The notes beneath the pieces are model-generated. The model did no database searches. It saw only the letters and a list, made by a program, of their open reading frames with translations, and was not told where the DNA came from. The translations under genes and the position numbers were made by a program. Shown here in pieces: positions 1,747 to 62,031 of a stretch of 64,000 bases of DNA; position 1 is the first letter of the stretch, and every line of letters starts with the position of its first letter. The DNA comes from Escherichia coli. GTDB taxonomy: Bacteria > Pseudomonadota > Gammaproteobacteria > Enterobacterales > Enterobacteriaceae. Where the stretch lies: assembly GCF_024700885.2 (NCBI RefSeq), contig NZ_CP117016.1, one strand, 5' to 3'.

Positions 1747-2778
<1,032 letters not shown>

Positions 2779-3772: not shown

Positions 3773-3955
3773 TATTACTCCGAAAAATGGAAGCGTCGAT
3801 TTTGGGTGGCTGGCCGTTAAAAATTTTAACTGCATTTAGCCAACTTAAATTAATGAAAAAATGTTATTAATCGTTGAGCTAAAGTCATTAGAGATGCTTT
3901 GCCCTTAATGTAACCATATCGCAATAAGTTATGTTTTTAAATTGAGGGCATTATT

Positions 3956-5008
3956 ATGAAAAAAATACCCTGCGTGATGATGCGAGGTGGAACCTCGAGG
4001 GGCGCGTTCCTGTTAGCGGAACATCTACCCGAAGATCAAACGCAGCGCGATAAAATATTGATGGCAATTATGGGTTCCGGTAACGATCTGGAAATTGACG
4101 GTATTGGCGGCGGTAATCCGCTGACCAGTAAAGTCGCCATTATTAGCCGTTCCAGCGATCCGCGTGCAGATGTCGATTATCTGTTTGCTCAAGTTATCGT
4201 CCATGAGCAACGTGTCGATACCACGCCTAACTGCGGCAATATGCTGTCTGGGGTTGGGGCATTCGCCATTGAAAATGGTTTGATTGCAGCGACTTCGCCA
4301 GTTACCCGCGTACGTATCCGCAACGTCAATACTGGTACGTTCATCGAGGCTGATGTGCAAACGCCAAATGGTGTTGTCGAGTACGAGGGTAGCGCCAGAA
4401 TTGACGGCGTACCGGGTACTGCCGCACCGGTTGCGCTCACTTTCCTGAATGCCGCCGGAACCAAAACCGGAAAAGTCTTCCCGACTGATAATCAGATTGA
4501 TTATTTTGACGATGTCCCGGTGACCTGTATCGATATGGCGATGCCAGTTGTCATTATTCCTGCTGAATATCTGGGAAAAACAGGCTATGAATCACCGGCG
4601 GAGCTGGATGCCGACAAAGCATTATTAGCCCGCATTGAATCTATCCGTCTACAAGCGGGTAAAGCAATGGGCTTAGGCGATGTCAGTAATATGGTTATCC
4701 CTAAACCTGTGCTTATTTCTCCAGCGCAGAAAGGCGGAGCAATTAATGTGCGTTATTTTATGCCGCATTCTTGCCATCGCGCGCTGGCGATAACCGGAGC
4801 TATTGCCATTTCCAGTAGTTGTGCATTGGAAGGCACCGTCACCCGACAAATCGTCCCTTCTGTAGGATACGGCAATATCAATATTGAACACCCCAGTGGT
4901 GCGCTCGACGTTCATTTAAGTAATGAAGGTCAGGATGCCACGACGTTACGCGCATCTGTTATTCGGACAACCAGAAAAATATTTTCCGGTGAAGTTTATC
5001 TTCCCTGA
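3956..5008 (+). CDS. ybhH: PrpF/AcnD-accessory-like putative isomerase
   Basis: 350-aa ORF MKKIPCVMMRGGTSRGAFL..., characteristic of the PrpF family. Confidence 0.8.
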   Translation: MKKIPCVMMRGGTSRGAFLLAEHLPEDQTQRDKILMAIMGSGNDLEIDGIGGGNPLTSKVAIISRSSDPRADVDYLFAQVIVHEQRVDTTPNCGNMLSGVGAFAIENGLIAATSPVTRVRIRNVNTGTFIEADVQTPNGVVEYEGSARIDGVPGTAAPVALTFLNAAGTKTGKVFPTDNQIDYFDDVPVTCIDMAMPVVIIPAEYLGKTGYESPAELDADKALLARIESIRLQAGKAMGLGDVSNMVIPKPVLISPAQKGGAINVRYFMPHSCHRALAITGAIAISSSCALEGTVTRQIVPSVGYGNINIEHPSGALDVHLSNEGQDATTLRASVIRTTRKIFSGEVYLP

Positions 5009-5083: not shown

Positions 5084-6517
5084 ATGAATAAGAAATCGTT
5101 ATGGAAGCTAATTCTGATATTAGCGATCCCATGTATTATTGGCTTTATGCCAGCTCCGGCAGGATTAAGCGAACTGGCGTGGGTGCTTTTTGGTATTTAC
5201 CTGGCGGCCATTGTGGGGCTGGTTATCAAGCCTTTCCCGGAACCTGTCGTACTGTTAATTGCCGTTGCTGCCTCAATGGTGGTGGTCGGTAACTTATCCG
5301 ACGGTGCGTTTAAGACCACCGCCGTATTAAGCGGTTACTCTTCAGGTACCACCTGGCTGGTGTTCTCGGCGTTTACCTTAAGCGCCGCATTTGTGACCAC
5401 CGGCTTAGGTAAACGTATAGCCTATCTGCTGATTGGTAAAATTGGTAGCACTACCCTGGGTCTGGGTTACGTTACGGTATTTCTCGATCTGGTACTGGCT
5501 CCGGCAACACCGTCTAACACCGCGCGTGCGGGCGGTATTGTGTTACCGATCATCAACAGCGTGGCGGTGGCTTTGGGGTCCGAACCGGAAAAAAGTCCGC
5601 GTCGTGTCGGACATTACCTGATGATGTCCATTTACATGGTCACCAAAACCACCAGCTATATGTTCTTTACCGCAATGGCGGGGAATATTCTGGCGCTGAA
5701 AATGATCAACGACATTCTGCACCTGCAAATTAGCTGGGGTGGATGGGCGCTGGCCGCTGGATTGCCGGGTATCATTATGCTGCTGGTCACCCCGCTGGTG
5801 ATTTACACCATGTATCCGCCAGAAATTAAGAAGGTGGATAACAAAACCATCGCCAAAGCGGGCCTTGCCGAACTGGGACCGATGAAAATCCGCGAAAAAA
5901 TGCTGCTCGGTGTCTTCGTGCTGGCGCTGCTGGGCTGGATTTTCAGTAAGTCACTGGGGGTTGATGAATCCACCGTGGCAATCGTTGTTATGGCGACTAT
6001 GCTGCTGCTGGGTATCGTTACCTGGGAAGACGTGGTTAAAAATAAAGGCGGCTGGAATACCTTAATCTGGTACGGCGGTATTATCGGCTTAAGCTCCTTA
6101 TTATCGAAAGTTAAATTCTTCGAATGGTTAGCTGAAGTCTTTAAAAATAACCTGGCATTTGATGGTCACGGTAACGTTGCTTTCTTCGTTATTATTTTCC
6201 TCAGCATTATCGTGCGTTATTTCTTCGCTTCCGGTAGTGCCTATATCGTTGCCATGTTACCAGTATTTGCCATGCTGGCGAACGTCTCCGGCGCGCCGTT
6301 AATGTTAACCGCGCTGGCACTGTTGTTCTCTAACTCCTATGGCGGCATGGTTACTCACTATGGCGGCGCGGCAGGTCCGGTCATCTTTGGCGTGGGTTAC
6401 AACGATATTAAATCCTGGTGGTTGGTCGGTGCGGTACTGACGATATTAACCTTCCTGGTGCATATCACCCTCGGCGTGTGGTGGTGGAATATGCTGATCG
6501 GCTGGAACATGCTGTAA
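5084..6517 (+). CDS. ybhI: Divalent anion:Na+ symporter (DASS)-family membrane transporter
   Basis: 477-aa highly hydrophobic multi-TM ORF; conserved gene order ybhH-ybhI-ybhJ. Confidence 0.85.
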   Translation: MNKKSLWKLILILAIPCIIGFMPAPAGLSELAWVLFGIYLAAIVGLVIKPFPEPVVLLIAVAASMVVVGNLSDGAFKTTAVLSGYSSGTTWLVFSAFTLSAAFVTTGLGKRIAYLLIGKIGSTTLGLGYVTVFLDLVLAPATPSNTARAGGIVLPIINSVAVALGSEPEKSPRRVGHYLMMSIYMVTKTTSYMFFTAMAGNILALKMINDILHLQISWGGWALAAGLPGIIMLLVTPLVIYTMYPPEIKKVDNKTIAKAGLAELGPMKIREKMLLGVFVLALLGWIFSKSLGVDESTVAIVVMATMLLLGIVTWEDVVKNKGGWNTLIWYGGIIGLSSLLSKVKFFEWLAEVFKNNLAFDGHGNVAFFVIIFLSIIVRYFFASGSAYIVAMLPVFAMLANVSGAPLMLTALALLFSNSYGGMVTHYGGAAGPVIFGVGYNDIKSWWLVGAVLTILTFLVHITLGVWWWNMLIGWNML

Positions 6518-6526
6518 ATATACTCG

Positions 6527-6650
6527 TCATACTTCAAGTTGCATGTGCTGCGTCTGCGTTCGCTCACCCCAGTCACTTACTTATGTAAGCTCCTGGGGAT
6601 TCACTCGCTTGTCGCCTTCCTGCAACTCGAATTATTTAGAGTATATCCAT
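6527..6650. repeat. ERIC (enterobacterial repetitive intergenic consensus) element
   Basis: Intergenic imperfect palindrome containing CGCTCACCCCAGTCACTTACTTATGTAAGCTCCTGGGGATTCAC, the reverse complement of the ERIC core. Confidence 0.6.
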
Positions 6651-6699
6651 TTATTATCTTTCTGCGCACTTTCCGGTGCGCAGATATCTGGAGCATTTG

Positions 6700-8961
6700 A
6701 TGATCAAGTTATCTGAAAAAAGCGTGTTTCTCGCCAGTAATAACGAAATAATTGCCGAAGAACATTTCACCGGCGAAATTAAAAAAGAAGAAGCAAAAAA
6801 AGGCACTATTGCCTGGTCTATTCTCTCTTCTCATAATACGTCCGGAAATATGGATAAACTTAAAATTAAGTTTGATTCATTAGCCTCTCACGATATTACC
6901 TTTGTTGGTATTGTACAGACCGCTAAAGCGTCCGGTATGGAACGTTTCCCGCTGCCGTATGTGCTGACCAACTGCCATAACTCACTCTGCGCCGTCGGCG
7001 GCACCATTAACGGTGATGACCATGTTTTTGGTTTATCGGCAGCGCAGCGTTATGGCGGTATTTTTGTGCCTCCGCATATTGCGGTCATCCATCAATATAT
7101 GCGTGAGATGATGGCAGGCGGCGGCAAAATGATCCTCGGGTCAGACAGCCACACCCGTTACGGTGCATTAGGGACAATGGCAGTCGGTGAGGGTGGCGGT
7201 GAGTTGGTAAAACAGCTGCTTAATGACACCTGGGATATCGACTATCCGGGCGTGGTTGCGGTGCATTTGACCGGAAAACCTGCGCCGCATGTGGGGCCAC
7301 AGGATGTGGCGCTGGCTATCATCGGTGCCGTGTTCAAAAACGGCTACGTCAAAAACAAAGTGATGGAATTCGTAGGTCCCGGTGTTGCTGCGCTCTCTAC
7401 CGATTTCCGTAACAGCGTTGACGTTATGACCACTGAAACGACCTGTTTAAGTTCTGTCTGGCAAACCGATGAAGAAGTCCATAACTGGCTGGCGCTGCAC
7501 GGTCGCGGCCAGGATTACTGCCAGCTTAACCCTCAACCGATGGCGTACTACGATGGCTGCATCAGCGTTGATTTAAGCGCCATCAAACCAATGATTGCGC
7601 TGCCGTTCCACCCGAGCAACGTATATGAAATCGACACACTGAACCAGAACCTGACCGACATTCTGCGTGAGATTGAAATTGAGTCCGAGCGCGTGGCGCA
7701 CGGTAAAGCCAAACTCTCGCTGCTGGATAAAGTCGAAAACGGTCGCCTGAAAGTGCAGCAGGGGATTATCGCGGGCTGTTCTGGCGGTAACTACGAAAAC
7801 GTCATCGCGGCGGCGAATGCACTGCGCGGTCAATCCTGTGGCAATGACACCTTCTCGCTGGCGGTTTATCCGTCATCACAGCCGGTGTTTATGGATCTCG
7901 CCAAAAAAGGTGTGGTAGCAGATTTGATTGGCGCAGGCGCAATCATCAGAACCGCGTTCTGCGGCCCATGCTTTGGCGCGGGCGATACGCCAATCAACAA
8001 CGGTTTGAGCATTCGCCACACCACGCGTAACTTCCCGAACCGCGAAGGCTCTAAGCCAGCCAATGGGCAGATGTCAGCGGTGGCGTTGATGGACGCTCGT
8101 TCTATCGCTGCGACTGCGGCAAACGGTGGCTATTTAACTTCTGCCAGCGAACTCGATTGCTGGGACAACGTGCCGGAGTACGCCTTCGATGTAACGCCGT
8201 ATAAAAACCGTGTTTATCAGGGCTTTGTGAAAGGGGCAACTCAGCAACCGCTGATTTACGGACCGAACATTAAAGACTGGCCGGAATTAGGTGCGCTGAC
8301 TGACAATATCGTCCTCAAAGTGTGCTCGAAGATCCTCGACGAAGTGACCACCACCGACGAACTGATCCCTTCCGGTGAAACCTCTTCTTATCGTTCAAAT
8401 CCGATTGGTCTGGCGGAGTTTACCCTGTCACGCCGCGATCCAGGTTATGTTGGCAGAAGTAAAGCGACTGCTGAGCTGGAAAATCAGCGTCTGGCGGGGA
8501 ATGTCAGCGAGCTGACAGAGGTGTTTGCGCGCATTAAGCAGATTGCTGGTCAGGAGCATATTGATCCGCTGCAAACTGAAATTGGCAGCATGGTCTATGC
8601 GGTGAAACCAGGCGATGGTTCTGCGCGTGAGCAGGCGGCGAGCTGCCAGCGTGTGATTGGCGGTCTGGCGAATATTGCCGAGGAGTACGCGACTAAACGC
8701 TACCGTTCTAACGTCATCAACTGGGGGATGTTACCGCTGCAAATGGCGGAAGCACCGAACTTTGACGTAGGTGATTACATTTACATCCCAGGCATTAAAG
8801 CGGCGCTGGATAATCCGGGTACGACGTTTAAAGGTTATGTGATCCATGAAGATGCGCCAGTAACAGAGATTACGCTCTATATGGAAAGTCTGACTGCTGA
8901 AGAGCGCGAGATTATCAAGGCGGGTAGTTTGATTAACTTCAATAAAAACCGTCAGATGTAA
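6700..8961 (+). CDS. ybhJ: Aconitase-family protein
   Basis: Long ORF (track 6676..8961) with aconitase-like architecture; ATG at 6700 (MIKLSEKS) chosen as start. Confidence 0.8.
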
Positions 8962-8965
8962 AAAA

Positions 8966-9033
8966 AGGCGCTATGAAATATAGCGCCCAGTTTCATTAAC
9001 CCGATGGTTCAGACTATCGGGTTTTCTTTTTTA
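8966..9033. terminator. Bidirectional intrinsic terminator region between convergent ybhJ and ybhC
   Basis: Two GC hairpins (GGCGCTAT..ATAGCGCC and CCCGATGG..CTATCGGG) flanked by A/T runs. Confidence 0.5.
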
Positions 9034-10314
9034 CTTCTTCGCCTCTGCAACCACTTTGCTACCCACGCCGCGGTTATTGTATTCCCACATGCGGTTGTAG
9101 TTAGTGTCATTCAGATTGCGTTGTATTTCGTCGCTATCGTCAACGCTGCCGGTGTTACCTGCGAATGGACGATTGGAAATCACCGCATCGGCCCACGGTT
9201 TCGCCGTGTTAAAACCTTCGTTGATGGCGCTATCACGGATCACCACCTGACCGTTGGTATTGGCATCAACATCCAGCGAGCGGCCCAGTTGCGCCACGCC
9301 ATCACCGGAAGCATTGAAACGGCTGTTTACGGCGAGGAAACCGTAATAGATGTTAGACAGCGTAGCCGGTGCAAACACATACGCTTCTTGCTGAGTACGT
9401 GAGTTCACCACGCGGAATTCGGTATTATCGAACACCACTGCGCCGCGACCAGAAACGATATCCACATCCCCTTCAATATAGCTGTTGGTCACCAGAGTAC
9501 GCGGCTGACGGTTGGTTTCCAGACGGTTTTGCACACCACTGTTGGTGACAAAGAAGGTATTCTGACGACCGAGAATGTTGACGTTATTGATCTGCACTTT
9601 GTCGCCATCAGTACGCAGTGCCACCGCCGGATGGTTACCCGCATCTACGCTATCGCCCAGCGTGTTTTCGATGGTCAGGTTTTGCAGTTGCAGGCCATTG
9701 TTTTGTGACCAGAAGACCGCAGAGCAGAGAACGCCGATACTGTCGCTGCGTTTGCTCTGGCAGCTATCGTACATATACCACGCTGGTTTACCTGGCATAT
9801 ATTTGCCGCGCGGGTTGACGTCATGACGCCAGTCGGCAGGGCTCATGCCCCCATCAAGGGAAAGCCCAATCTTCACATCAATCGGTTTTTCACCTGTACC
9901 GTACAGAGTAATTCCACCCGGAGCGGCAGGGACATATACCGTTCCCTGATACTCACCAGGCATCACGGCAATATACTGGCGCTTGTTGGTGCGCTTGATA
10001 ATTGCCGCATCTACCGCCGCCTGAATCGTGGTATGCGTTACACCTTGAGTACCCGCCGGGCCGACAACAAAGTCAGGTTGCGCAGGCAGGGTAATCGGGG
10101 AAGGATTCCACGCTGCCGCACCTGGTGTCAGGGATGCAAAATAGTGTTGAGCATCGAAATTCTGCGCTTCTTTTGCCGACAGAATCGGGCGAGAAGAGGT
10201 ACCAGGCGCGGTTTGATCAGAAGGACGTTGATCGGGCGGTGTTGAGCTACAGGCGGTCAGCGTCACGCCAAAAGCCAATGCCAGCGCCAGACGGGAAACT
10301 GAAAATGTGTTCAC
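9031..10314 (-). CDS. ybhC: Pectinesterase-like outer-membrane lipoprotein
   Basis: 427-aa minus ORF with signal peptide plus lipobox (LTACSS) and a pectin-methylesterase-like beta-helix. Confidence 0.85.
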   Translation of the reverse strand: MNTFSVSRLALALAFGVTLTACSSTPPDQRPSDQTAPGTSSRPILSAKEAQNFDAQHYFASLTPGAAAWNPSPITLPAQPDFVVGPAGTQGVTHTTIQAAVDAAIIKRTNKRQYIAVMPGEYQGTVYVPAAPGGITLYGTGEKPIDVKIGLSLDGGMSPADWRHDVNPRGKYMPGKPAWYMYDSCQSKRSDSIGVLCSAVFWSQNNGLQLQNLTIENTLGDSVDAGNHPAVALRTDGDKVQINNVNILGRQNTFFVTNSGVQNRLETNRQPRTLVTNSYIEGDVDIVSGRGAVVFDNTEFRVVNSRTQQEAYVFAPATLSNIYYGFLAVNSRFNASGDGVAQLGRSLDVDANTNGQVVIRDSAINEGFNTAKPWADAVISNRPFAGNTGSVDDSDEIQRNLNDTNYNRMWEYNNRGVGSKVVAEAKK

Positions 10315-10360
10315 AGGTTGCTCCGGGCTATGAAATAGAAAAATGAATCCGTTGAAGCCT

Positions 10361-10375
10361 GCTTTTTTATACTAA
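10361..10375. other. attL: attL core (GCTTTTTTATACTAA), followed by the lambda-like P' arm
   Basis: Core is followed by GTTGGCATTATAAAAAAGCATTGCTTATCAATTTGTTGCAACGAACAGGTCACTATCAGTCAAAATAAAATCATTATTTG, lambda attP P'-arm sequence. Confidence 0.9.
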
Positions 10376-10448
10376 GTTGGCATTATAAAAAAGCATTGCT
10401 TATCAATTTGTTGCAACGAACAGGTCACTATCAGTCAAAATAAAATCA

Positions 10449-11519
10449 TTATTTGATTTCAATTTTGTCCCACTCCCTGCCTCTGTCATCACGATACTGT
10501 GATGCCATGGTGTCCGACTTATGCCCGAGAAGATGTTGAGCAAACTTATCGCTTATCTGCTTCTCATAGAGTCTTGCAGACAAACTGCGCAACTCGTGAA
10601 AGGTTGGCGGATCCCCTTCGAAGGAAAGACCTGATGCTTTTCGTGCGCGCATAAAATACCTTGATACTGTGCCGGATGAAAGCGGTTCACGACGAGTAGA
10701 TGCAATTATGGTTTCTCCGCCAAGAATCTCTTTGCATTTACCAAGTGTTTCCTTCATTGATATCCCGAGAGCATCAACATGCAATGTTGTAGGGATGGCA
10801 ATTTTTACGCCTGTTTTGCTTTGCTCGACATAAAGATATCCATCTACGATATCAGACCACTTCATTTCGCATAAATCACCAACTCGCTGCCCGGTAACAA
10901 CAGCCAGTTCCATTGCAAGTCTGAGCCAACATGGTGATGATTCTGCTGCTTGATAAATTTTCAGGTATTCGTCAGCCGTAAGTCTTGATCTCCTTACCTC
11001 TGATTTTGCTGCGCGAGTGGCAGCGACCGGGTTTGTTGTTATATGGCCTTCAGCTATTGCCTCTCGGAATGCATCGCTCAGTGTTGATCTGATTAACTTG
11101 GCTGACGCCGCCTTGCCCTCGTCTATGTATCCATTGAGCATTGCCGCAATTTCTTTTGTGGTGATGTCTTCAAGTGAAACATCAGGCAGACCCCTCCTTA
11201 TTGCTTTAATTTTGCTCATGTAATTTATGAGTGTCTTCTGCTTGATTCCTCTGCTGGCGAGGATTTTTTCGTAGCGATCAAGCCATGAATGTAACGTAAC
11301 AGAATTATCACTGTTGATTCTCGCTGTCAGAGGCTTGTGTTTGTGTCCTGAAAATAACTCAATATTGGCCTGTATTGCTTCAGTAATTGCTATCCTCCTG
11401 TCTCTGCCTAATCCGAACTCTTTACCCGTCCTTGGGTCCCTGTAGCAGTAATATCCATTGTTTCTTATATAAAGGTTAGGGGGTAAATCCCGGCGCTCAT
11501 GACTTCGCCTTCTTCCCAT
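10449..11519 (-). CDS. int: Lambda-type integrase (tyrosine recombinase)
   Basis: 356-aa ORF MGRRRSHERRDLPPNLYIRNNGYYCYRDPRTGKEF..., recognised as lambda Int; adjacent to attL. Confidence 0.95.
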   Translation of the reverse strand: MGRRRSHERRDLPPNLYIRNNGYYCYRDPRTGKEFGLGRDRRIAITEAIQANIELFSGHKHKPLTARINSDNSVTLHSWLDRYEKILASRGIKQKTLINYMSKIKAIRRGLPDVSLEDITTKEIAAMLNGYIDEGKAASAKLIRSTLSDAFREAIAEGHITTNPVAATRAAKSEVRRSRLTADEYLKIYQAAESSPCWLRLAMELAVVTGQRVGDLCEMKWSDIVDGYLYVEQSKTGVKIAIPTTLHVDALGISMKETLGKCKEILGGETIIASTRREPLSSGTVSRYFMRARKASGLSFEGDPPTFHELRSLSARLYEKQISDKFAQHLLGHKSDTMASQYRDDRGREWDKIEIK

Positions 11520-11715
11520 TTCTGATCCTCTTCAAAAGGCTACCTGTTACTGGTCGATTTAAGTCAACCTTTACCGCTGATTCGTGGAACAGATACTCTC
11601 TTCCATCCTTAACCGGAGGAGGGAATATCCTGCATTCGCGCACCCATCGACGAACTGTTTCAAGGCTTCTTGGGCGTCGCTGGCGTGCGTTCCACTCCTG
11701 AAGTGTCAAGTACAT
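11497..11715 (-). CDS. xis: Excisionase
   Basis: 72-aa ORF MYLTLQEWNARQRRPRSLETVRRWVRECRIFPPP..., lambda Xis; overlaps the int start as in lambda. Confidence 0.9.
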   Translation of the reverse strand: MYLTLQEWNARQRRPRSLETVRRWVRECRIFPPPVKDGREYLFHESAVKVDLNRPVTGSLLKRIRNGKKAKS

Positions 11716-12349: not shown

Positions 12350-13006
12350 TCACCCCTGGGGCGGTTCTGGTAGCGGCATCCAGTGGGTTACCTCCATGCG
12401 GCACCCATCATCCGACGTAAACCACGAACGATCGTCCGCACTGAACCAGCCAATCCGGATATAACCCCACACATCGAAGAAAAGTACGTCGTGATTATTA
12501 TCCGGCATTCGATCACTACAGCTTATCCAACCATCAGGAGTTACCGGAGAGTTGCCACCGGGAATATTTTCCGGAATATTTTGTTGTGCGTTTTGTGGTT
12601 GTTCGGATTTACCCTGAAGCATGGCGGCGCGGCAGGCGTTCCAGCCAGCTGTTCGCCCAAGCGCGTAAACTTCAGATGGCTCAAGATAATCAATGTCATG
12701 CCCATCCTCATCGTCGTTCTCAGGTAATGCAGCAGGTACTACCGGTACTGGCGGAGCGGCGTAGACTTCAATAATCCCATTATCAATAGGCCATTCCCCA
12801 TCCTTGATGTAGTCACTTGTGCCGTCAACTTGCTGTTCTGCAATGTGGAATGCGCCAATAGGCTCTGCTTCCAGCGATGCCAGTGCAATACGCAGGGCAG
12901 CCAGGATATTCCCCTGGTAATCATCAAGCCCGAAAGGAAGCTCATCACGAATGCTTTCATAATCGTTGATAGCCTGCTGCAGCCATTCTCTTGTGATAGT
13001 GCTCAT
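12350..13006 (-). CDS. Early-left accessory protein with C-terminal DUF551-like domain
   Basis: 218-aa ORF; C-terminus WISCSDRMPD...THWMPLPEPP is typical of prophage DUF551 proteins; stop overlaps the next gene start. Confidence 0.6.
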   Translation of the reverse strand: MSTITREWLQQAINDYESIRDELPFGLDDYQGNILAALRIALASLEAEPIGAFHIAEQQVDGTSDYIKDGEWPIDNGIIEVYAAPPVPVVPAALPENDDEDGHDIDYLEPSEVYALGRTAGWNACRAAMLQGKSEQPQNAQQNIPENIPGGNSPVTPDGWISCSDRMPDNNHDVLFFDVWGYIRIGWFSADDRSWFTSDDGCRMEVTHWMPLPEPPQG

Positions 13007-13671
13007 GATGCCTCTCCTTTACATGCTTCGGTGACGTTTATTCCAGCGTTGTGCAGTGCCTCAAGAACCTGATGCTGCCTGTAAACCATTTCAGTGTGGT
13101 AAGGCTCGTCAAAATCGACGCGATGCAACATGCTATAGCATTGCGGAAGCACAACCTCCCGCAACTCCAGCTCAGCAATGCGCTTCTCTGCGGCTTCCAG
13201 CTTCTCGCGCATATCGTCAACGTACTCGACCAGAGATCCGCCAGCAGGAATTTCGCACTCCTCGACCAGTTGGAAGTAGATATCAGCTGCGGCCCGTGTG
13301 TTGCTATGCCTAGCGTCGCCCATCTCACCTTCACGAAGAGCACCGCGTTCGGCGGTAAGATTGGCTATTTTGCTGTCTTTGCCTTCAAGCTCAACGCGCA
13401 GCTTCCCTACCGTTAGCGCAATATCCTCGTTCTCCTGGTCACGGCGTTTGATGTATTGCTGGTTTCTTTCCCGTTCATCCAGTAGTGCCAGCACGGTTTC
13501 TGGTCCGGCCAGAAATTTGAAGGCGTTGAGCGCATCAATATCCACACCGTAATCTTTAAGTTCCTGTTCACTTAACAAATCATCATCAGCTGGCAACATT
13601 AACAGGCGTTCCATTGCTGGAATTGCACGTTTCGCCGCCTCACGCAGTGCCTGATAGTCAATCTTGCTCAC
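13003..13671 (-). CDS. Ead/Ea22-like hypothetical protein, paralog A
   Basis: 222-aa ORF with N-terminal MSKIDYQALREAA motif shared with the adjacent gene; overlapping start/stop. Confidence 0.6.
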   Translation of the reverse strand: MSKIDYQALREAAKRAIPAMERLLMLPADDDLLSEQELKDYGVDIDALNAFKFLAGPETVLALLDERERNQQYIKRRDQENEDIALTVGKLRVELEGKDSKIANLTAERGALREGEMGDARHSNTRAAADIYFQLVEECEIPAGGSLVEYVDDMREKLEAAEKRIAELELREVVLPQCYSMLHRVDFDEPYHTEMVYRQHQVLEALHNAGINVTEACKGEAS

Positions 13672-14264
13672 TGGTTGCCTCCTTTTCGAAGCTGGGCGGC
13701 GATATCTTCGAGAACGCCATCAGAGAATGAGCGGTCAAAATCGCCTTCCGGCGCATTAGCCATAAACTCAGTAGAGGTAAGAATCATCCGGGCAATATCC
13801 GCGGCGTTCTTCGCAGTATCATCAATAAAACCAGCTTCCCAGGCAGCCAGCATTCTGTTCGCCACAAAATAAGCGCCTTCCTTGCGTGCTTCAGTCTTCA
13901 CTTCAGCTAGAAAAGCATCGGTAGCTGGAGTTTCGCTGTGGTGCAGGGCATCGTTGATAATCATTGCAGCAACTCCGGCCTGCCCTGCATCCGTGACCGA
14001 CACATGCTCAAGAGTTACGGCCATTGCGTGTTTCAGCCCGGCGTTCTCTGCCACCAGCGCCGCGAGATTAGTCTCAAGCTCTGCAATACGGCACATAGCA
14101 TCAATATTTGTGTCTTCCAGCCGCTTAATTTCATCCAGTAGAGCCAGTGCCACCGATGGCGTGAACGCCATACGAAACGCCACAAAATTTTGATGCATAG
14201 GTTCTGTTTCTACTGCAACTGCCGCATCTCGCAGTGCCTGATAGTCAATTGTCATTCTCGCCAT
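13668..14264 (-). CDS. Ead/Ea22-like hypothetical protein, paralog B
   Basis: 198-aa ORF with N-terminal [12 protein letters not shown] motif (compare paralog A). Confidence 0.6.
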   Translation of the reverse strand: MARMTIDYQALRDAAVAVETEPMHQNFVAFRMAFTPSVALALLDEIKRLEDTNIDAMCRIAELETNLAALVAENAGLKHAMAVTLEHVSVTDAGQAGVAAMIINDALHHSETPATDAFLAEVKTEARKEGAYFVANRMLAAWEAGFIDDTAKNAADIARMILTSTEFMANAPEGDFDRSFSDGVLEDIAAQLRKGGNQ

Positions 14265-14896
14265 CCTTCACAGTTGTAATCACGACAGCCTTCAAAATCA
14301 TATGGGCTGTACTGCCAGGTAATTTTTCCGCAATGCGGACAATTCCAACGCACCTTCCCGCTTCGCGACTTCTTTCTTCTGTTCTGCTTTTTCAACCAGT
14401 CAGGCATGACCAAACCTGCGCCCTGAACCATTGTTCTGCGGTTAAAGTTATTGATATTGAACGTCCGGCGCTTTGCTGAATCAGCAATGGAAAATGGCAA
14501 CCAAACTATTCCTGGTTCGTTTTTGTTGGCGACGCTAAAGATGGTCGCTTTACTGAAGTCATCTGTTGGCAATCCACCGTGTTGAAGCCAGTAAACATCG
14601 TTGCCGTTCCAGCTACCTTTTTTGTAGGCCACATACGCAGTGCAATCTGACTCAATCAGGCTTTCTGTAGGGATGTACTGGCAATCAACGTGCCACACTG
14701 CCATTGCATCCACGCTATCCGCGCAAACAGGCTGATCGATATCTCGCCCACAATTCCAGGCTTTTTGGGCTTCTTCCAGCGTGTAAACATGAGCGCGATC
14801 GATATCAGAACTGTAACCATTGCCGTTATGGCAATGGAATGAAGCGTTATTGCCCACAGTTTCACGCGAGCACATCATGTAAAAACGGTTAGTCAC
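14252..14896 (-). CDS. Hypothetical Cys-rich early protein
   Basis: Track ORF 14252..14917; C-terminal CPHCG...CRDYNCEGW Cys cluster; start moved to a GTG at 14896 that is preceded by AGGAGG. Confidence 0.5.
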
Positions 14897-15076
14897 TGGC
14901 TGCCTCCTTTGCGCCACATCGCATTCAGATATTTGTTTTCATTCACTGATGGAAAAGAATTTCTCTTAAGTAATTCCTCTCTCGATGGCATTGGCTTTAC
15001 GCGTTGGCGAATAATCATTTCTGCCGGAAGAATGCCGGGATTGTATGCAAGTCCTCTCATGGTAAATTACTCTTTG

Positions 15077-15391
15077 TTAATTTATTTGTATGCCTGCTCT
15101 TTCTTCATCGAGTTTTTTTAGCTTGTATCGCATAGCTCTTACTGAATAAATTGAGCGGCAGGTTGCAATTGCTATTTCTTCTGCGGAGAACTTACCGAAA
15201 AGTGATACTTCGGCTCTTGTCCATCGTCTTCCACGAAGTCGGCTAACAATGTCAGCGCCAATCCTTGTTGCTTTCGCCATTACTGCTTTTTCAGTCCTTT
15301 CCAGTTTTTCAGCGATAACTTCAACTGGCATTGTCGCCGCCACTTCGCGCAAGAAATCGACTTCCCATTTCTCCCATGGAGTCTTTTTCAT
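15077..15391 (-). CDS. Hypothetical protein with two internal Myb/SANT-like repeats
   Basis: 104-aa ORF with internal duplication (WEKWEVDFLREVAATMPVEVIAEKL / WTRAEVSLFGKFSAEEIAIATCRS). Confidence 0.55.
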   Translation of the reverse strand: MKKTPWEKWEVDFLREVAATMPVEVIAEKLERTEKAVMAKATRIGADIVSRLRGRRWTRAEVSLFGKFSAEEIAIATCRSIYSVRAMRYKLKKLDEERAGIQIN

Positions 15392-15402
15392 AGGCGATAC
15401 CG

Positions 15403-15891
15403 TTATTTGATAAGAAGTGAAGGTTTCCCAACTTTGAGTTGAGCACCGGGGATATTTATTCCTGCTTTTAGTTGGTGTTTGATTGCCAGTTTGTCGGCTT
15501 TAATTGTCGTTTCAAACTCAACGTATTCAGGAGGAAGGGTGCTTGAGTCGATGATTTCTACAGTTTCTGACGGTTTGCGGATTGTTACCTGGTGAATACC
15601 TGCTCGAATCTTTTTCTTGCCAACCATTTCAAGCGATGACGCTATATACGCCATAATGCTGTCAATCTTATTTTGAATTACTGCGGCTCGCTCATTTAGT
15701 GACTTTGCCTCGTCCTTGAGGCGTTCAGCATAACCAGATTCATTTTTAATAATGGCAAGAAGTTGCTCTATTTTATCGGTAAATTCTCCTTCCATGCCTT
15801 CTATTGTGTCAGCAATCATCTCTGGCTCTAAATCTGAATCCATCAATTTTGCGTATTCATTGGCTATTTCATATAGTTTGCTCACTGGCAA
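15403..15891 (-). CDS. Gp157-like phage protein
   Basis: 162-aa coiled-coil-rich ORF immediately downstream of RecT; resembles Siphovirus Gp157 family. Confidence 0.55.
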   Translation of the reverse strand: MPVSKLYEIANEYAKLMDSDLEPEMIADTIEGMEGEFTDKIEQLLAIIKNESGYAERLKDEAKSLNERAAVIQNKIDSIMAYIASSLEMVGKKKIRAGIHQVTIRKPSETVEIIDSSTLPPEYVEFETTIKADKLAIKHQLKAGINIPGAQLKVGKPSLLIK

Positions 15892-16771
15892 CCTCCAGTT
15901 TCGCTTTGCATTCTATGTAAATGGCTTGTACGTTCTGCTGCAATTTCATTCCAGATGTCAGGCGATATGCTTCTGCAAAATATCGCTTCAAATCATCCAT
16001 GTTTTCTGCCTGAGCCATTTCATCACAAAGAAGTTGTGCTTTTTCCATAATTTCCTGCTGGCGTTTCCGTTCATCTTCGCGGATATATTCCTCTGATTTG
16101 TGCGGCATAACTGGTTCAGTCCACACACCTTCTTCTTCGTTTAGTACGTGAATAGCACTATCAAGACGTGATGCCTTAGGCCAATACTTGCTTGCACGCT
16201 TTACGACCGTCTTTCGCGCCATCTCTTCCCAGAATGTTTTCCACGGTCCATTCTTTGCCTTGCTCGTTGCTTCCACAGCTTTAATTTCTGCCAGACTCAT
16301 TTCTTCAGTCAGGTAGTCACCATCTGCTGTTTTAACCGTGCAATAACCACCAACAATAGAGCCTCGCTCACCAAATGCGTTGTATTTGTGGGTTGGTGCT
16401 GAATCAAGACCGTTTGATTCATAGGTGTCGTTTGAGTACACCAGTTTGCATTGCCCCCACTTAATTGATCCTGTCGACTGTGCAAGGTGAAGTAATCCCA
16501 TGTAACTGATATCAAGGCACACCATGCCGTCGCGAGGAACCAGATAAGCCAGTTTGCTGGCCGGGTTTAAGGTGATGCCGATCGCCGCAACGTTGATGAT
16601 AGCGTTCTGTGCGCTGGTCGGATTTGCCAGTGCCGTTTTAGCCAGGTAATCATTTTTCTGGAAATACTGAATTGCAAACTGGCTTTCCTTAGCCCATGTC
16701 ACCGTCTGTTCAGTCAATGCTCCGCAGAATAACTGCTCCTGCTGTTTAACGAATTCAACGATATTGCTCAT
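15869..16771 (-). CDS. recT: RecT-family single-strand annealing recombinase
   Basis: 300-aa ORF with RecT-like core (GYCTVKTADGDY...EEMARKTVVKRASKYWP); occupies the lambda bet position. Confidence 0.8.
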   Translation of the reverse strand: MSNIVEFVKQQEQLFCGALTEQTVTWAKESQFAIQYFQKNDYLAKTALANPTSAQNAIINVAAIGITLNPASKLAYLVPRDGMVCLDISYMGLLHLAQSTGSIKWGQCKLVYSNDTYESNGLDSAPTHKYNAFGERGSIVGGYCTVKTADGDYLTEEMSLAEIKAVEATSKAKNGPWKTFWEEMARKTVVKRASKYWPKASRLDSAIHVLNEEEGVWTEPVMPHKSEEYIREDERKRQQEIMEKAQLLCDEMAQAENMDDLKRYFAEAYRLTSGMKLQQNVQAIYIECKAKLEVASEQTI

Positions 16772-27079: not shown

Positions 27080-27154
27080 GGGTCAGTCGTATAAAGGTCA
27101 TTACGGAAGGCTGTTAACCTTCTTATCGTGGTTCGAGTCCACGCTGTCCCGCCA
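27080..27154 (+). tRNA. tRNA-like gene, anticodon GTT (Asn-like)
   Basis: Hand-folded cloverleaf: acceptor GGGTCAG/CTGTCCC (one mismatch), anticodon stem GAAGG/CCTTC with loop CTGTTAA, T-arm CGTGG-TTCGAGT-CCACG, discriminator G and CCA. Confidence 0.5.
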
Positions 27155-27159
27155 AATAT

Positions 27160-27235
27160 GCTGGTTTAGCTCCAATGGTAGAGCAGTCGCCTTGTAAACG
27201 AATGGGTAGCGGTTCAAGTCCGTTAACCAGCACCA
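27160..27235 (+). tRNA. tRNA-like gene, anticodon TGT (Thr-like)
   Basis: Acceptor GCTGGTT/AACCAGC, canonical D-arm GCTC-CAATGGTA-GAGC, T-arm AGCGG-TTCAAGT-CCGTT, CCA end; anticodon stem has two mismatches. Confidence 0.5.
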
Positions 27236-46642: not shown

Positions 46643-46860
46643 AGTTTATTGAGGTTGATGAGATTGGCTATGAGAATGCACTTGGTAGAGGTAAATCTTT
46701 AGTTAACGTTAATGGCATTGAGTCGATAAGGAGCGGTGAATTTACGGAGATCAGAATGATGTCAGGTGGAATCATTCCTTGCCGTGATTCAGTAGAGTCA
46801 ATCAAAGCAAGAATGAGTGGTCAGTGGCTTTATAACTACAGTGACTTACAAAAACAGTGA
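46639..46860 (+). CDS. Hypothetical protein (73 aa) between arc and ant
   Basis: ORF with overlapping start/stop to arc and to the ant upstream frame. Confidence 0.45.
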
Positions 46861-46922
46861 AGCCCCAACTGCGGGAACAGTCAGGGCTTCGGGTGTCAGT
46901 AAATCCGTGGAGAAAAACCAAC

Positions 46923-47825
46923 ATGAATAGTATAGCAATTTTAGAAGCAGTGAACACCTCTTACGTGCCTTTCAATGGTCAGCAAATTATCACCGCCATG
47001 GCTGCCGGAGTTGCATATGTTGCGATGAAGCCAATCGTTGAAAACCTTGGAATGAGCTGGTCAACGCAGCAAACAAAACTCATGAAGCAGATTAGCAAAT
47101 TCAACTGTGTTCATATGAACATGGTTGCCGCTGATGGGAAGCTTCGTAAGCTACTCTGCCTTCCTTTGAAGAAGTTAAATGGATGGCTGTTCAGCATCAA
47201 CCCTGAGAAAGTTCGTGCTGACATCCGCGATAAACTGATTCAGTACCAGGAAGAATGCTTTACTGTGCTGCATGACTACTGGACAAAGGGAAAGGCAGAA
47301 AATGCACGTAAGAAAACATCTGTTGATGACAGGACTCCGCTTCGTGATGCTGTAAATATGCTGGTCAGCAAAAAGCATCTAATGTACCCAGAAGCTTATG
47401 CAATGATTCATCAGCGTTTCAATGTGGAAAGTATTGAAGAGCTTGATGCATCTCAGATACCGCAAGCCGTAGAGTACATCCACAGGGTAGTACTTGAAGG
47501 CGAGTTAATCGGCAAACAAGAGAAGAAAGCAAACGAGCTTTCTGCAAAAGAAGCAAACAGCCTTGTATGGTTATGGGATTATGCCAACCGCTCACAGGCA
47601 TTATTCCGCGAACTGTATCTGGCGCTAAAACAAATTCAATCGAACTATTCCGGCAGATGCTACGACTACGGTCATGAATTCTCGTATGTTATCGGAATGG
47701 CGAGAGACGTTTTAATAAACCACACACGAGATGTTGATATTAATGAGCCAGACGGACCAACGAATCTTTCCGCATGGATGAGACTTAAGAATAAAGAATT
47801 ACCTCCTTCAGTACATAACTACTGA
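46923..47825 (+). CDS. ant: Antirepressor Ant (P22 immI)
   Basis: Internal start [47 protein letters not shown]..., matches P22 Ant (300 aa). Confidence 0.85.
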
Positions 47826-60889: not shown

Positions 60890-61040
60890 ATTTACACGCT
60901 AGTATCGGCTTAACCACTAAACACTCTAGCCTCTGCACCTGGGTCAACTGATACGGTGCTTTGGCCGTGACAATGCTCGTAAAGATTGCCACCAGGGCGA
61001 AGAAAGAAATGACTTCGCCTCCCGTATCTGGAAAGGTGTA
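60890..61040 (+). ncRNA. Molybdenum-cofactor (Moco) riboswitch in the moaA leader (approximate bounds)
   Basis: Structured leader upstream of moaA; placement from established knowledge of the moa operon, not folded here. Confidence 0.45.
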
Positions 61041-61041
61041 C

Positions 61042-62031
61042 ATGGCTTCACAACTGACTGATGCATTTGCGCGTAAGTTTTACTACTTGCGCCTGTCGAT
61101 TACCGATGTGTGTAACTTTCGTTGCACCTACTGCCTGCCGGATGGCTACAAACCGAGCGGCGTCACCAATAAAGGCTTTCTTACCGTCGATGAAATTCGC
61201 CGGGTTACGCGCGCCTTCGCCAGTCTGGGCACCGAAAAAGTCCGTCTGACGGGCGGTGAGCCATCTTTACGCCGCGACTTTACCGATATCATCGCCGCTG
61301 TGCGGGAAAACGACGCTATCCGCCAGATTGCGGTCACCACCAATGGTTACCGTCTGGAACGCGATGTGGCGAACTGGCGCGATGCGGGACTTACTGGCAT
61401 CAACGTCAGCGTTGATAGCCTTGACGCTCGCCAGTTTCATGCCATTACCGGGCAGGATAAATTCAACCAGGTCATGGCAGGGATCGATGCTGCATTTGAG
61501 GCCGGTTTTGAGAAGGTCAAAGTCAATACCGTGCTGATGCGTGATGTTAATCATCATCAGCTCGACACCTTTCTGAACTGGATCCAGCATCGCCCTATCC
61601 AGCTGCGTTTCATCGAATTGATGGAAACGGGTGAGGGCAGCGAGCTCTTCCGTAAGCATCACATCTCTGGTCAGGTTCTGCGTGACGAGCTACTGCGTCG
61701 CGGCTGGATCCACCAATTACGTCAACGCAGCGACGGTCCCGCGCAAGTCTTTTGTCATCCGGATTACGCCGGAGAGATTGGCCTTATCATGCCGTATGAA
61801 AAAGACTTCTGCGCCACTTGCAACCGCCTGCGCGTTTCCTCCATTGGTAAACTCCATCTCTGCCTGTTTGGTGAAGGCGGCGTTAACCTGCGCGATCTGC
61901 TGGAAGACGATACCCAGCAACAGGCGCTGGAAGCGCGTATTTCAGCGGCGCTGCGGGAGAAGAAACAGACCCATTTCCTGCATCAAAACAACACCGGTAT
62001 TACGCAAAACTTATCGTACATTGGCGGCTAA
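61042..62031 (+). CDS. moaA: GTP 3',8-cyclase (radical SAM)
   Basis: Start at [33 protein letters not shown] (CxxxCxxC radical SAM motif). Confidence 0.9.

Follow-up and report, generated by a model that had tools for sequence, protein, structure and literature searches.

A 64,000-nucleotide (nt) stretch of Escherichia coli DNA, referred to here as the window, harbors a P22-like/lambdoid prophage in which five small leftward genes, spanning positions 12350 to 15060, lie downstream of the recombination genes and upstream of the genes for excisionase (xis) and integrase (int). This block is an ordinary, real accessory block of the prophage, in the form of a chain of translationally coupled, non-essential early genes, and combines known types of module in a new way within a region of a familiar kind. 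As an explanation for the whole, we consider it very probable that the block is a non-essential 'ea' or exo-xis-type accessory segment of the early-left operon, the pL operon subject to N antitermination. Its existence is unsurprising, as it belongs to a textbook type of mosaic accessory region. The exact crossover points within its Ea22-like genes, at an 18-nt repeat and a ~110-nt core, provide a clean natural experiment on how such regions are assembled, and the block reveals, down to an identical protein, that a P22-like prophage of the chromosome has exchanged sequence with P1-type phage-plasmids.

Five overlapping genes form a coupled chain

On the minus strand, the chain opens with a DUF2737 gene (14893..15060; PF10930, E=1.4e-32) annotated as a coding sequence by PGAP, whose product ends in RKGGSQ before the stop codon. 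Next come gene 4 (14252..14896, 214 amino acids), a homolog of P7 Upf87.6 matching phrog_2457 (E=1e-118); an Ea22-like gene, Ea22-2 (13668..14255, 195 amino acids; PF13935, E=3.4e-10; WP_001702241.1), ending in RKGGNQ; a further, canonical Ead/Ea22 gene, Ea22-1 (13003..13671, 222 amino acids; PF13935, E=9.7e-30), with the tail KGEAS; and the gene for an EaA-like protein with a DUF551 domain (12350..13006, 218 amino acids; PF04448, E=1.2e-15; phrog_60/5117/660). An earlier note on this DNA had described the last four as tightly overlapping leftward genes. All four are real and annotated by PGAP, but two of the starts had been set too far upstream; from the overlaps and the Shine-Dalgarno sequences, gene 4 most likely starts at the GTG at 14896 rather than at 14917, and Ea22-2 at the ATG at 14255 rather than at 14264. 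With the starts so corrected, each junction in the chain is a 4-nt ATGA or GTGA stop/start overlap, and Shine-Dalgarno sequences are found 6-8 nt upstream of the starts, embedded in the last codons of the preceding gene. Because the DUF2737 gene is coupled in the same way as the other four, the chain was counted as five genes. The note had also placed the block after the recombination module, an order that stood, except that two small genes (15077-15391 and the DUF2737 gene) lie between the two.

A promoter/terminator scan of the minus strand from 12350 to 15100 found no convincing internal promoter or terminator, and Rfam and tRNA scans revealed no RNA gene within the block. PDB sequence searches with all four proteins yielded zero matches, as did NCBIfam profiles for the block proteins.

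The two middle genes share an Ea22-type N-terminus

Both middle proteins exceeded the cutoff of the Pfam family Ead_Ea22 (PF13935, 27 bits), with scores of 104.4 bits for Ea22-1 and 41.1 bits for Ea22-2, and PGAP names both genes 'ead/Ea22-like family protein'. The earlier note had pointed to an N-terminal motif common to the two and had proposed a pairwise alignment of the products, together with profile searches, as checks. The BLASTP alignment displayed significant N-terminal similarity (E=3e-4, 28% identity), and the profile searches matched PF13935 twice, PF04448 and PF10930. Overall, the proteins are ~26-28% identical and the similarity of their DNA is limited to two islands, outside of which the genes are not alignable. 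One island, found by repeat search, comprises 29 nt at the 5' end and encodes (T)IDYQALRDAA in Ea22-2 (14221..14249, minus strand) and (K)IDYQALREAA in Ea22-1 (13634..13662, minus strand), the two copies being identical at 27 of 29 positions. The other, which is identical at 17 of 18 positions, encodes LALLDE (14130..14147 in Ea22-2 and 13474..13491 in Ea22-1, both on the minus strand). There are two exact copies of the 20-mer ATTGACTATCAGGCACTGCG in the window, where shuffles led to an expectation of 0.01. Because Pfam, BLASTP and repeat statistics agree, the shared N-terminal motif is real and represents a known family signature.

To place the two proteins within the family, Ea22-1 and Ea22-2 were aligned with lambda Ea22, HK620 HkaG, HF4s EaD, P7 Upf88.3, a P1-like plasmid protein and 611R6 Ea22. 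Four parts were apparent in this eight-protein alignment, namely a handle that is invariant (IDYQALR..A), a spacer that varies, a core (LALLDERERNQQYIKRRDQENEDIALTVGKLRVELE) and C-terminal parts that are unrelated. The core was nearly identical in seven of the eight proteins, Ea22-2 being the divergent one, and residues I4, Q7, A8, L9, R10, A13, L61, L63, L64, D65 and E66 were invariant. As is typical of the family, Ea22-1 and Ea22-2 also lie within the early-left operon, with the recombination genes on one side and xis/int on the other.

The block is a mosaic with exchange points at conserved islands

The sources of the block were mapped by local blastn of the window against fetched relatives. 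Positions 13385-14913, which span gene 4, the whole of Ea22-2 and the first ~95 codons of Ea22-1, are 98.9% identical to the P1-like phage-plasmid pZ1323CEC0010-3, whose Ea22-2 protein carries the same accession (WP_001702241.1) and is thus identical. Positions 12855-13494, spanning the remainder of Ea22-1 and 50 codons at the start of the DUF551 gene, are 98% identical to the EaD and EaA region of the P22-like phage HF4s. The two sources overlap only at 13385..13494 (minus strand), where the conserved core of Ea22-1 (LLDERERNQQYIKRRDQENEDIALTVGKLRVELE) is encoded and where similarity switches from the P1-like plasmid to HF4s; Ea22-1 is therefore a chimera with the crossover in its core. Lambda Ea22 has nearly the same core, and the C-terminal part that follows it in Ea22-1 is as in HF4s EaD and HK620 HkaG.

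The C-terminal part of Ea22-2, on the other hand, is homologous to the C-terminal parts of HK620 HkaH (a homolog of HK97 gp37; E=2e-6) and HF4s EaE (E=5e-7), which likewise carry the ETPATDAFLAEV motif and a QLRKGG(S/N)Q tail; no Pfam domain was found in HkaH or EaE. In P22-like phages, a gene of the EaE/HkaH type fills the slot directly upstream of the Ea22 gene. Given this homology, Ea22-2 is an Ea22 handle fused to an EaE/gp37-type module. In P7, the single Ea22 gene (upf88.3) matches positions 14130-14907 (98%) and 13385-13491 of the window, joined exactly at the 18-nt LALLDE repeat, from which it follows that a single recombination between the repeats separates upf88.3 from the tandem pair. 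The domain shuffling suspected in the earlier note is thus borne out by the chimeric Ea22-1, by the EaE/HkaH-type C-terminal part of Ea22-2 and by the P7 fusion.

Pieces of the block recur at 95-99% nucleotide identity in P22-like phages, Shiga toxin (Stx) phages and P1/P7-type phage-plasmids; the virulent phage Av-05, for its part, is 96% identical in nucleotide sequence to positions 14261-14890. At a coverage of at least 80%, the tandem Ea22-2/Ea22-1 junction was present in 138 of 5426 complete E. coli genomes and the whole block in only one. The exchange points coincide with short conserved islands, namely the 29 nt at the 5' end of the Ea22 genes, the 18-nt LALLDE segment, the ~110-nt core and an 18-nt Shine-Dalgarno junction, and the cassettes would be swapped by homologous recombination at these islands.

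Junction cassettes and the C-terminal tails they encode

The 18-nt junction between Ea22-2 and Ea22-1 (AAAGGAGGCAACCAGTGA; 13668..13685, minus strand) comprises a Shine-Dalgarno sequence, a spacer and a GTG start overlapping the TGA stop. A second copy, AAAGGAGGCAGCCAGTGA, with a GTGA overlap, is found between the DUF2737 gene and gene 4 (14893..14910, minus strand). The 18-mer AAAGGAGGCA(A/G)CCAGTGA has exactly two matches in the window, against 0.01 expected, and also ends HK620 hkaH and 611R6 gp37; the gene that follows it is always GTG-initiated and either of the Ea22 type or gene 4. Because they all carry the junction sequence at the 3' end of their genes, otherwise unrelated proteins end in RKGG(S/N)Q. 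The tail of the DUF2737 protein reads WRKGGSQ here (14893-14913), as opposed to WRSGKK in HK620, HF4s and 611R6, and was apparently replaced together with the downstream cassette. The junction cassette would, in this scheme, travel with the gene downstream of it.

Other Ea22 genes end differently. Ea22 proteins ending in IKGE are followed by TGAnATG in HK620, 611R6 and P7; the KRGE tail of the 933W protein is followed by TAATG, which opens an unannotated open reading frame; and the window and HF4s share a KGEAS tail with an ATGA overlap. All Ea22 proteins were reported to have a '+GE' end, the significance of which was called 'unknown' by Dydecka et al. (PMC7093339). The KGG codons of the tails described above are AAAGGAGGC and the KGE codons AAAGGAGAG. 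From these sequences, we infer that (K/R)GE is no feature of the protein as such and that its codons (AAAGGAGAG) serve as the Shine-Dalgarno sequence of a coupled downstream gene, within a portable junction that doubles as a recombination site, which would provide a simple explanation for an end that the literature calls unexplained. Two points weigh against this interpretation: it was drawn from six to seven junctions, and no gene follows the +GE tail in lambda. In the window itself, Ea22-1 has KGE plus two further residues (KGEAS) and Ea22-2 ends in RKGGNQ with no +GE tail. The lambda ea22 gene ends in aaaggagagTGAgATC (2140-2150, minus strand), giving TGAgATC and then no gene for ~190 nt, and judging from this sequence lambda looks to have kept a decayed junction after ea22.

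Further observations were made on junctions of this kind. The 933W open reading frame (~3950-4105, minus strand) begins at an ATG that overlaps the stop of Ea22 (gagTAATGcgt), and its product, MRVACIGLLPYPTRFW..., is small and basic. In plasmid pZ1323, the same sequence as in 933W comes after the Ea22B gene (just below 3535), but with the ATG mutated (TAGTGC). A third, imperfect copy of the junction motif, GGAGGTTGCCAGTGAGCAA, lies at 15878-15896 of the window, at the Gp157 start (GTG 15885) and inside the 3' end of recT; Gp157 and Ea22-1 share the start GTGAGCAA (MSK...).

A DUF551 domain ends the EaA-like protein

The C-terminal DUF551-like domain that had been noticed in the last protein of the chain was identified by PF04448, which matched over its full model (1-68) at residues 159-217 of 218, with a score of 58.6 bits (cutoff 22). 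The corresponding codons lie at 12356..12532 (minus strand), and the domain consists of a variable core between the conserved motifs W-x5-R-x-P and THWMPLPxPP; in the DUF551 alignment, W160, P168, W209, P211, L212 and P216 were invariant. Alignment of the EaA-like proteins revealed a plan like that of the Ea22 proteins: the N-terminal handle (MSTITRE...RIALASLEAEPIG), the hinge (GNSPVTPDGWISCS(D/E)RMP) and the very end (THWMPLPEPP) are constant, whereas the pieces between handle and hinge vary and the DUF551 core between hinge and end is highly variable. The AlphaFold2 model shows a helical N-terminal handle, a low-confidence middle and DUF551 at the C-terminus. The hinge is encoded by 59 nt (GNSPVTPDGWISCSDRMP; 12499..12557, minus strand) that are 94-98% shared with HK620, HF4s and 611R6 and that lie just upstream of the variable core.

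The EaA-like protein has thousands of close relatives in Enterobacteriaceae, some of which are called Eaa. Its own DUF551 core sequence is rare and the full-length protein was found on only 38 contigs. An exhaustive DUF551 search yielded 4848 clusters at 50% identity, and in 148 of the best 150 cluster representatives (proteins of 56-410 amino acids) the domain fell within 10 residues of the C-terminus. This placement is in line with published work, in which DUF551 is seen as a portable domain; it is also the C-terminal domain of the Ea22_V2 variant (PMC10834534) and is found in YfdS (PMC10834534; PMC4776307).

Gene 4 encodes a conserved protein with a predicted zinc ribbon

Gene 4 had 138 homologs, and among the matches listed these were mostly full-length (~210-220 amino acids), came from Enterobacterales, Yersinia, Acinetobacter and a methanotroph, and were, where named, without exception called hypothetical or uncharacterized. 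No Pfam or NCBIfam family was found for gene 4. In its modeled structure, the N-terminal body is of the alpha/beta kind and is followed by a basic helix and then, at the C-terminus, a four-cysteine zinc ribbon; the predicted fold is confident, with no relative in the PDB. The C-terminal cysteine cluster to which the earlier note had drawn attention proved conserved, in that C186, C189 and C204 were invariant, and C209 at least 90% conserved, across an alignment of 42 homologs. The codons (CPHC...C...C; 14270..14341, minus strand) are preceded by a basic linker, the arrangement C186-x2-C189...C204-x4-C209 conforms to a zinc-ribbon pattern, with metal binding only predicted, and the model places strands at residues 182-185 and 192-195. 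Taken together, the basic linker and the ribbon suggest from sequence that gene 4 binds nucleic acid or a protein. Other conserved polar residues include Y28, Q44, D71, Q73, N99, D100 and K142. A search for an internal repeat in gene 4 gave no significant result (E 0.52).

Gene 4 was present in 270 of 5426 E. coli genomes and full-length in 251 of 273 records, with 174 places on plasmids and 105 on chromosomes, and was also found in Av-05, a virulent phage of the Vequintavirinae (96% nucleotide identity). It is the least mosaic part of the block and moves as an intact cassette. The ratio of non-synonymous to synonymous substitution rates (dN/dS) was 0.07-0.14 against four relatives, a sequence-based measure by which gene 4 is under purifying selection. 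The Yersinia homolog is located in a prophage, flanked by a cI/Cro-type switch and the integrase, and those of Acinetobacter and Methyloprofundus lie amid clusters of mostly uncharacterized small genes. No conserved neighbor was found in these three settings: the overlapping genes on the upstream side show no relationship, either among themselves or with the P1-like plasmid's gene for a PAPS-reductase-family protein, and what the distant loci share is only the context of an apparent prophage or phage-like gene cluster. Adjoining the Yersinia prophage is an AAA_15/AAA_21 ATPase and RloB-like gene pair (8428-10436), which may be a defense locus beside the integrase.

A segment of gene 4 resembles H-C-x2-G-x3-[ST], the pattern of phosphatase P-loops. 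The depositors of P7 annotated Upf87.6 as a phosphatase, their record noting that it 'encodes putative tyrosine protein phosphatase'. However, the candidate cysteine (Cys22) is replaced by R, G or S in several homologs of the 42-protein alignment, no arginine is present at Cys+6, no Pfam or NCBIfam phosphatase profile matched and the fold is not that of a phosphatase. A phosphatase identity is thus extremely unlikely, and the reading was rejected for both gene 4 and Upf87.6 on the grounds that the cysteine is not conserved and the C-x5-R signature is absent.

Proposed roles and alternative explanations

Experimental data exist for only one family in the block, in the form of those on Ea22 of lambda and Phi24B. 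In Ea22, a coiled coil lies between a short N-terminal segment and a C-terminal domain that varies, and the protein is tetrameric with a dimeric C-terminal domain (PMC10834534). The lambda gene is non-essential (PMC10695390). Deletion of ea22 in lambda and Phi24B led to a shorter latent period, a larger burst and lower host survival; it lowered lysogenization in lambda, and in Phi24B its effect on lysogeny depended on the multiplicity of infection (m.o.i.), lysogeny being higher at an m.o.i. of 1 and lower at 5 and 10 (PMC7093339). By analogy, Ea22-1 and Ea22-2 are probably coiled-coil oligomers that would act as scaffolds, presenting exchangeable C-terminal domains to host or phage partners, and that may lengthen the latent period and favor lysogeny and host survival, thereby tuning the timing of the lysis-lysogeny decision. 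The DUF551 protein would be built on the same plan of constant handle, variable linkers and portable C-terminal domain, and gene 4 would be an independent, self-sufficient early effector. Because of the lambda and Phi24B data, we hold this scaffold and timing role to be the most likely one. Several observations weigh against it. The C-terminal domains encoded here differ from the solved C-terminal domain of lambda Ea22 and had no sequence match in the PDB, so that the phenotype was transferred from lambda by family only. Ea22-2, moreover, has a divergent core and lacks the +GE tail. In a crude heptad test, Ea22-1 and Ea22-2 scored no better than shuffles (75/500 and 68/500). Finally, an arms race over host defense would account for the hypervariable C-terminal domains, and for the occurrence of gene 4 in a virulent phage, at least as well as a role in lysis-lysogeny.

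The latter point bears on the possibility, which we regard as unlikely overall, that anti-defense or host-takeover effectors are encoded by all or part of the block, above all by gene 4 and the DUF551 gene, with the variable C-terminal modules acting as inhibitors or decoys that track polymorphic host immunity proteins. The genes are early and non-essential, related phages (HK620 and HF4s) hold the anti-RecBCD gene abc2 in this region, and both the extreme mosaicism of the modules and the diversity of the DUF551 core between constant flanks count in its favor; the intact occurrence of gene 4 in temperate prophages, P1-like plasmids and the virulent Av-05 in addition argues for a function independent of lysogeny. 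Yet none of the proteins displayed homology to a characterized inhibitor, Pfam, PHROG and NCBIfam profiles returned no such name, fold searches were uninformative, and PADLOC, whose models describe defense rather than anti-defense systems, had no match for the eight proteins of the block and its flanks. Moreover, none of the papers listed by the literature search on Ea22 and anti-defense mentioned Ea22 or linked it to anti-defense, and the lambda and Phi24B phenotypes were obtained in MG1655 and concern developmental timing. In our estimation rather improbable is a specific proposal in which gene 4 is a new kind of stand-alone early effector, with a fold that has no solved relative and that is tethered by a basic helix to a zinc ribbon, and has spread intact through lambdoid/P22-like prophages, P1-like phage-plasmids and a virulent Vequintavirinae phage, its copies being 96-99% identical in nucleotide sequence; it would neutralize a widespread host function, be it a defense system or a nucleic-acid transaction, and the Ea22 and EaA handles would be general oligomerizing scaffolds for interchangeable host-targeting domains. 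As a well-folded family under purifying selection that spans the divide between temperate and virulent phages, gene 4 is a reasonable candidate for functional screens.

Two other explanations concern the origin and the integrity of the block. The earlier note had read the similar N-termini as a sign of duplication, and the two Ea22-like genes, adjacent, in the same orientation and with a common 5' end and LALLDE island, might indeed be the products of a tandem duplication that took place recently in this prophage, after which their C-terminal halves diverged. This is highly unlikely, and a recent local duplication was rejected, in view of the low protein identity and unalignable DNA outside the islands, the homology of the C-terminal part of Ea22-2 to the usual occupant of that slot in P22-like phages, and the spread of the pair, as a unit, across 138 genomes and P1-like plasmids. 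That the open reading frames are decaying, functionless prophage remnants is scarcely credible. The prophage genes are annotated only by domain names, a decayed junction follows lambda ea22, and pZ1323 carries pseudogenized DUF551 and eaa fragments nearby; but all frames of the block are intact, with good Shine-Dalgarno sequences and overlaps, the dN/dS of gene 4 is low, Ea22-2 is identical across replicons and the family hidden Markov models scored strongly.

Setting of the block in the prophage

The chromosome of E. coli MLI114 (NZ_CP117013.1), a PGAP-annotated record, contains the window with 100% identity. The prophage occupies ~10.4-51 kb of the window, its insertion site being flanked by ybhC and bioA. 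Its integrase (10449-11519) and excisionase (11497-11715) are of the lambda type, and its virion genes are P22-like, encoding a P22 portal, a P22 coat and a tailspike with a P22 head-binding domain; Ant with sar RNA is also present. Within the leftward early operon, the block sits downstream of N, kil, RecT (15869-16771) and Gp157 (15403-15885, with a GTG start at 15885), the latter two identified by Pfam matches, and upstream of xis/int. A gene of 104 amino acids (15077-15391) lies between the recombination module and the block.

Elsewhere in the prophage, the sar RNA matched Rfam at 46856-46922 (minus strand, 83.6 bits), antisense to the start of the P22-type antirepressor gene (P22_AR_N/C; 46857-47825, plus strand), so that a region resembling P22 immI coexists here with lambda int and the lambda attachment site. 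Two tRNA genes (Asn-GTT and Thr-TGT) are found at 27080-27235, between nin-type and later genes. A Moco riboswitch (60910-61054, 102.9 bits) is located in the host flank, far outside the prophage.

Comparison with known systems

The closest parallel to the two middle genes is the Ea22 of lambda and Stx phages, with which both have the N-terminal IDYQALR-AA segment in common, and whose core LLDERERNQQYIKRRDQENEDIALTVGKLRVELE is, in the case of lambda, almost identical in Ea22-1. Position, from the recombination genes to xis, and modular plan, with unrelated C-terminal domains, are also the same (PMC10834534). In contrast to lambda, two tandem copies are found here instead of one, the C-terminal domains are unrelated to the solved lambda domain (PDB 8DSX per PMC10834534), and the prophage is P22-like with a RecT/Gp157 module in place of exo/bet.

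In gene order, the block corresponds to the P22 ea genes and to HK620 hkaE-hkaI, where DUF2737, gp37/EaE-type, Ead/Ea22-type and EaA/DUF551 genes precede xis/int, and it is syntenic with the phages HK620, HF4s and 611R6, with the same junction sequences. It departs from P22 and HK620 in that the EaE/gp37 slot holds a protein whose N-terminus is of the Ea22 type and in that the gene 4 cassette is inserted upstream as an extra gene, as in phage 611R6.

Gene 4 together with an Ea22-like unit recurs, 98-99% identical in nucleotide sequence to the window, in the 'hea' operon of P7 and P1-like elements (upf87.6 and upf88.3). The P7 record places hea expression under a C1 operator, which marks the operon as early. 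The single Ea22 gene of P7, unlike the pair described here, is a fusion of the tandem genes at the LALLDE repeat, and the surrounding genes of P7 and P1-like elements differ, including a PAPS-reductase-family protein and a primase-like protein. In pZ1323CEC0010-3, the former (5941-6813) is in an operon with gene 4 and the Ea22 unit; in P7, positions 5444-6726 hold pap (annotated as 3'-phosphatase / P7 acid phosphatase) and the primase-like protein under the C1 operator (Op hea). The P1/P7 operon with gene 4 and Ea22 looks like a further accessory hotspot.

Lastly, the EaA-like protein resembles other DUF551 proteins, such as E. coli CPS-53 YfdS, the L0140-type EaA of 933W and Ea22_V2, in bearing a C-terminal DUF551 on exchangeable N-terminal parts. 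It differs from them in its handle, which is helical and its own (MSTITRE...RIALASLEAEPIG) and takes the place of an Ea22 handle or an enzyme domain.

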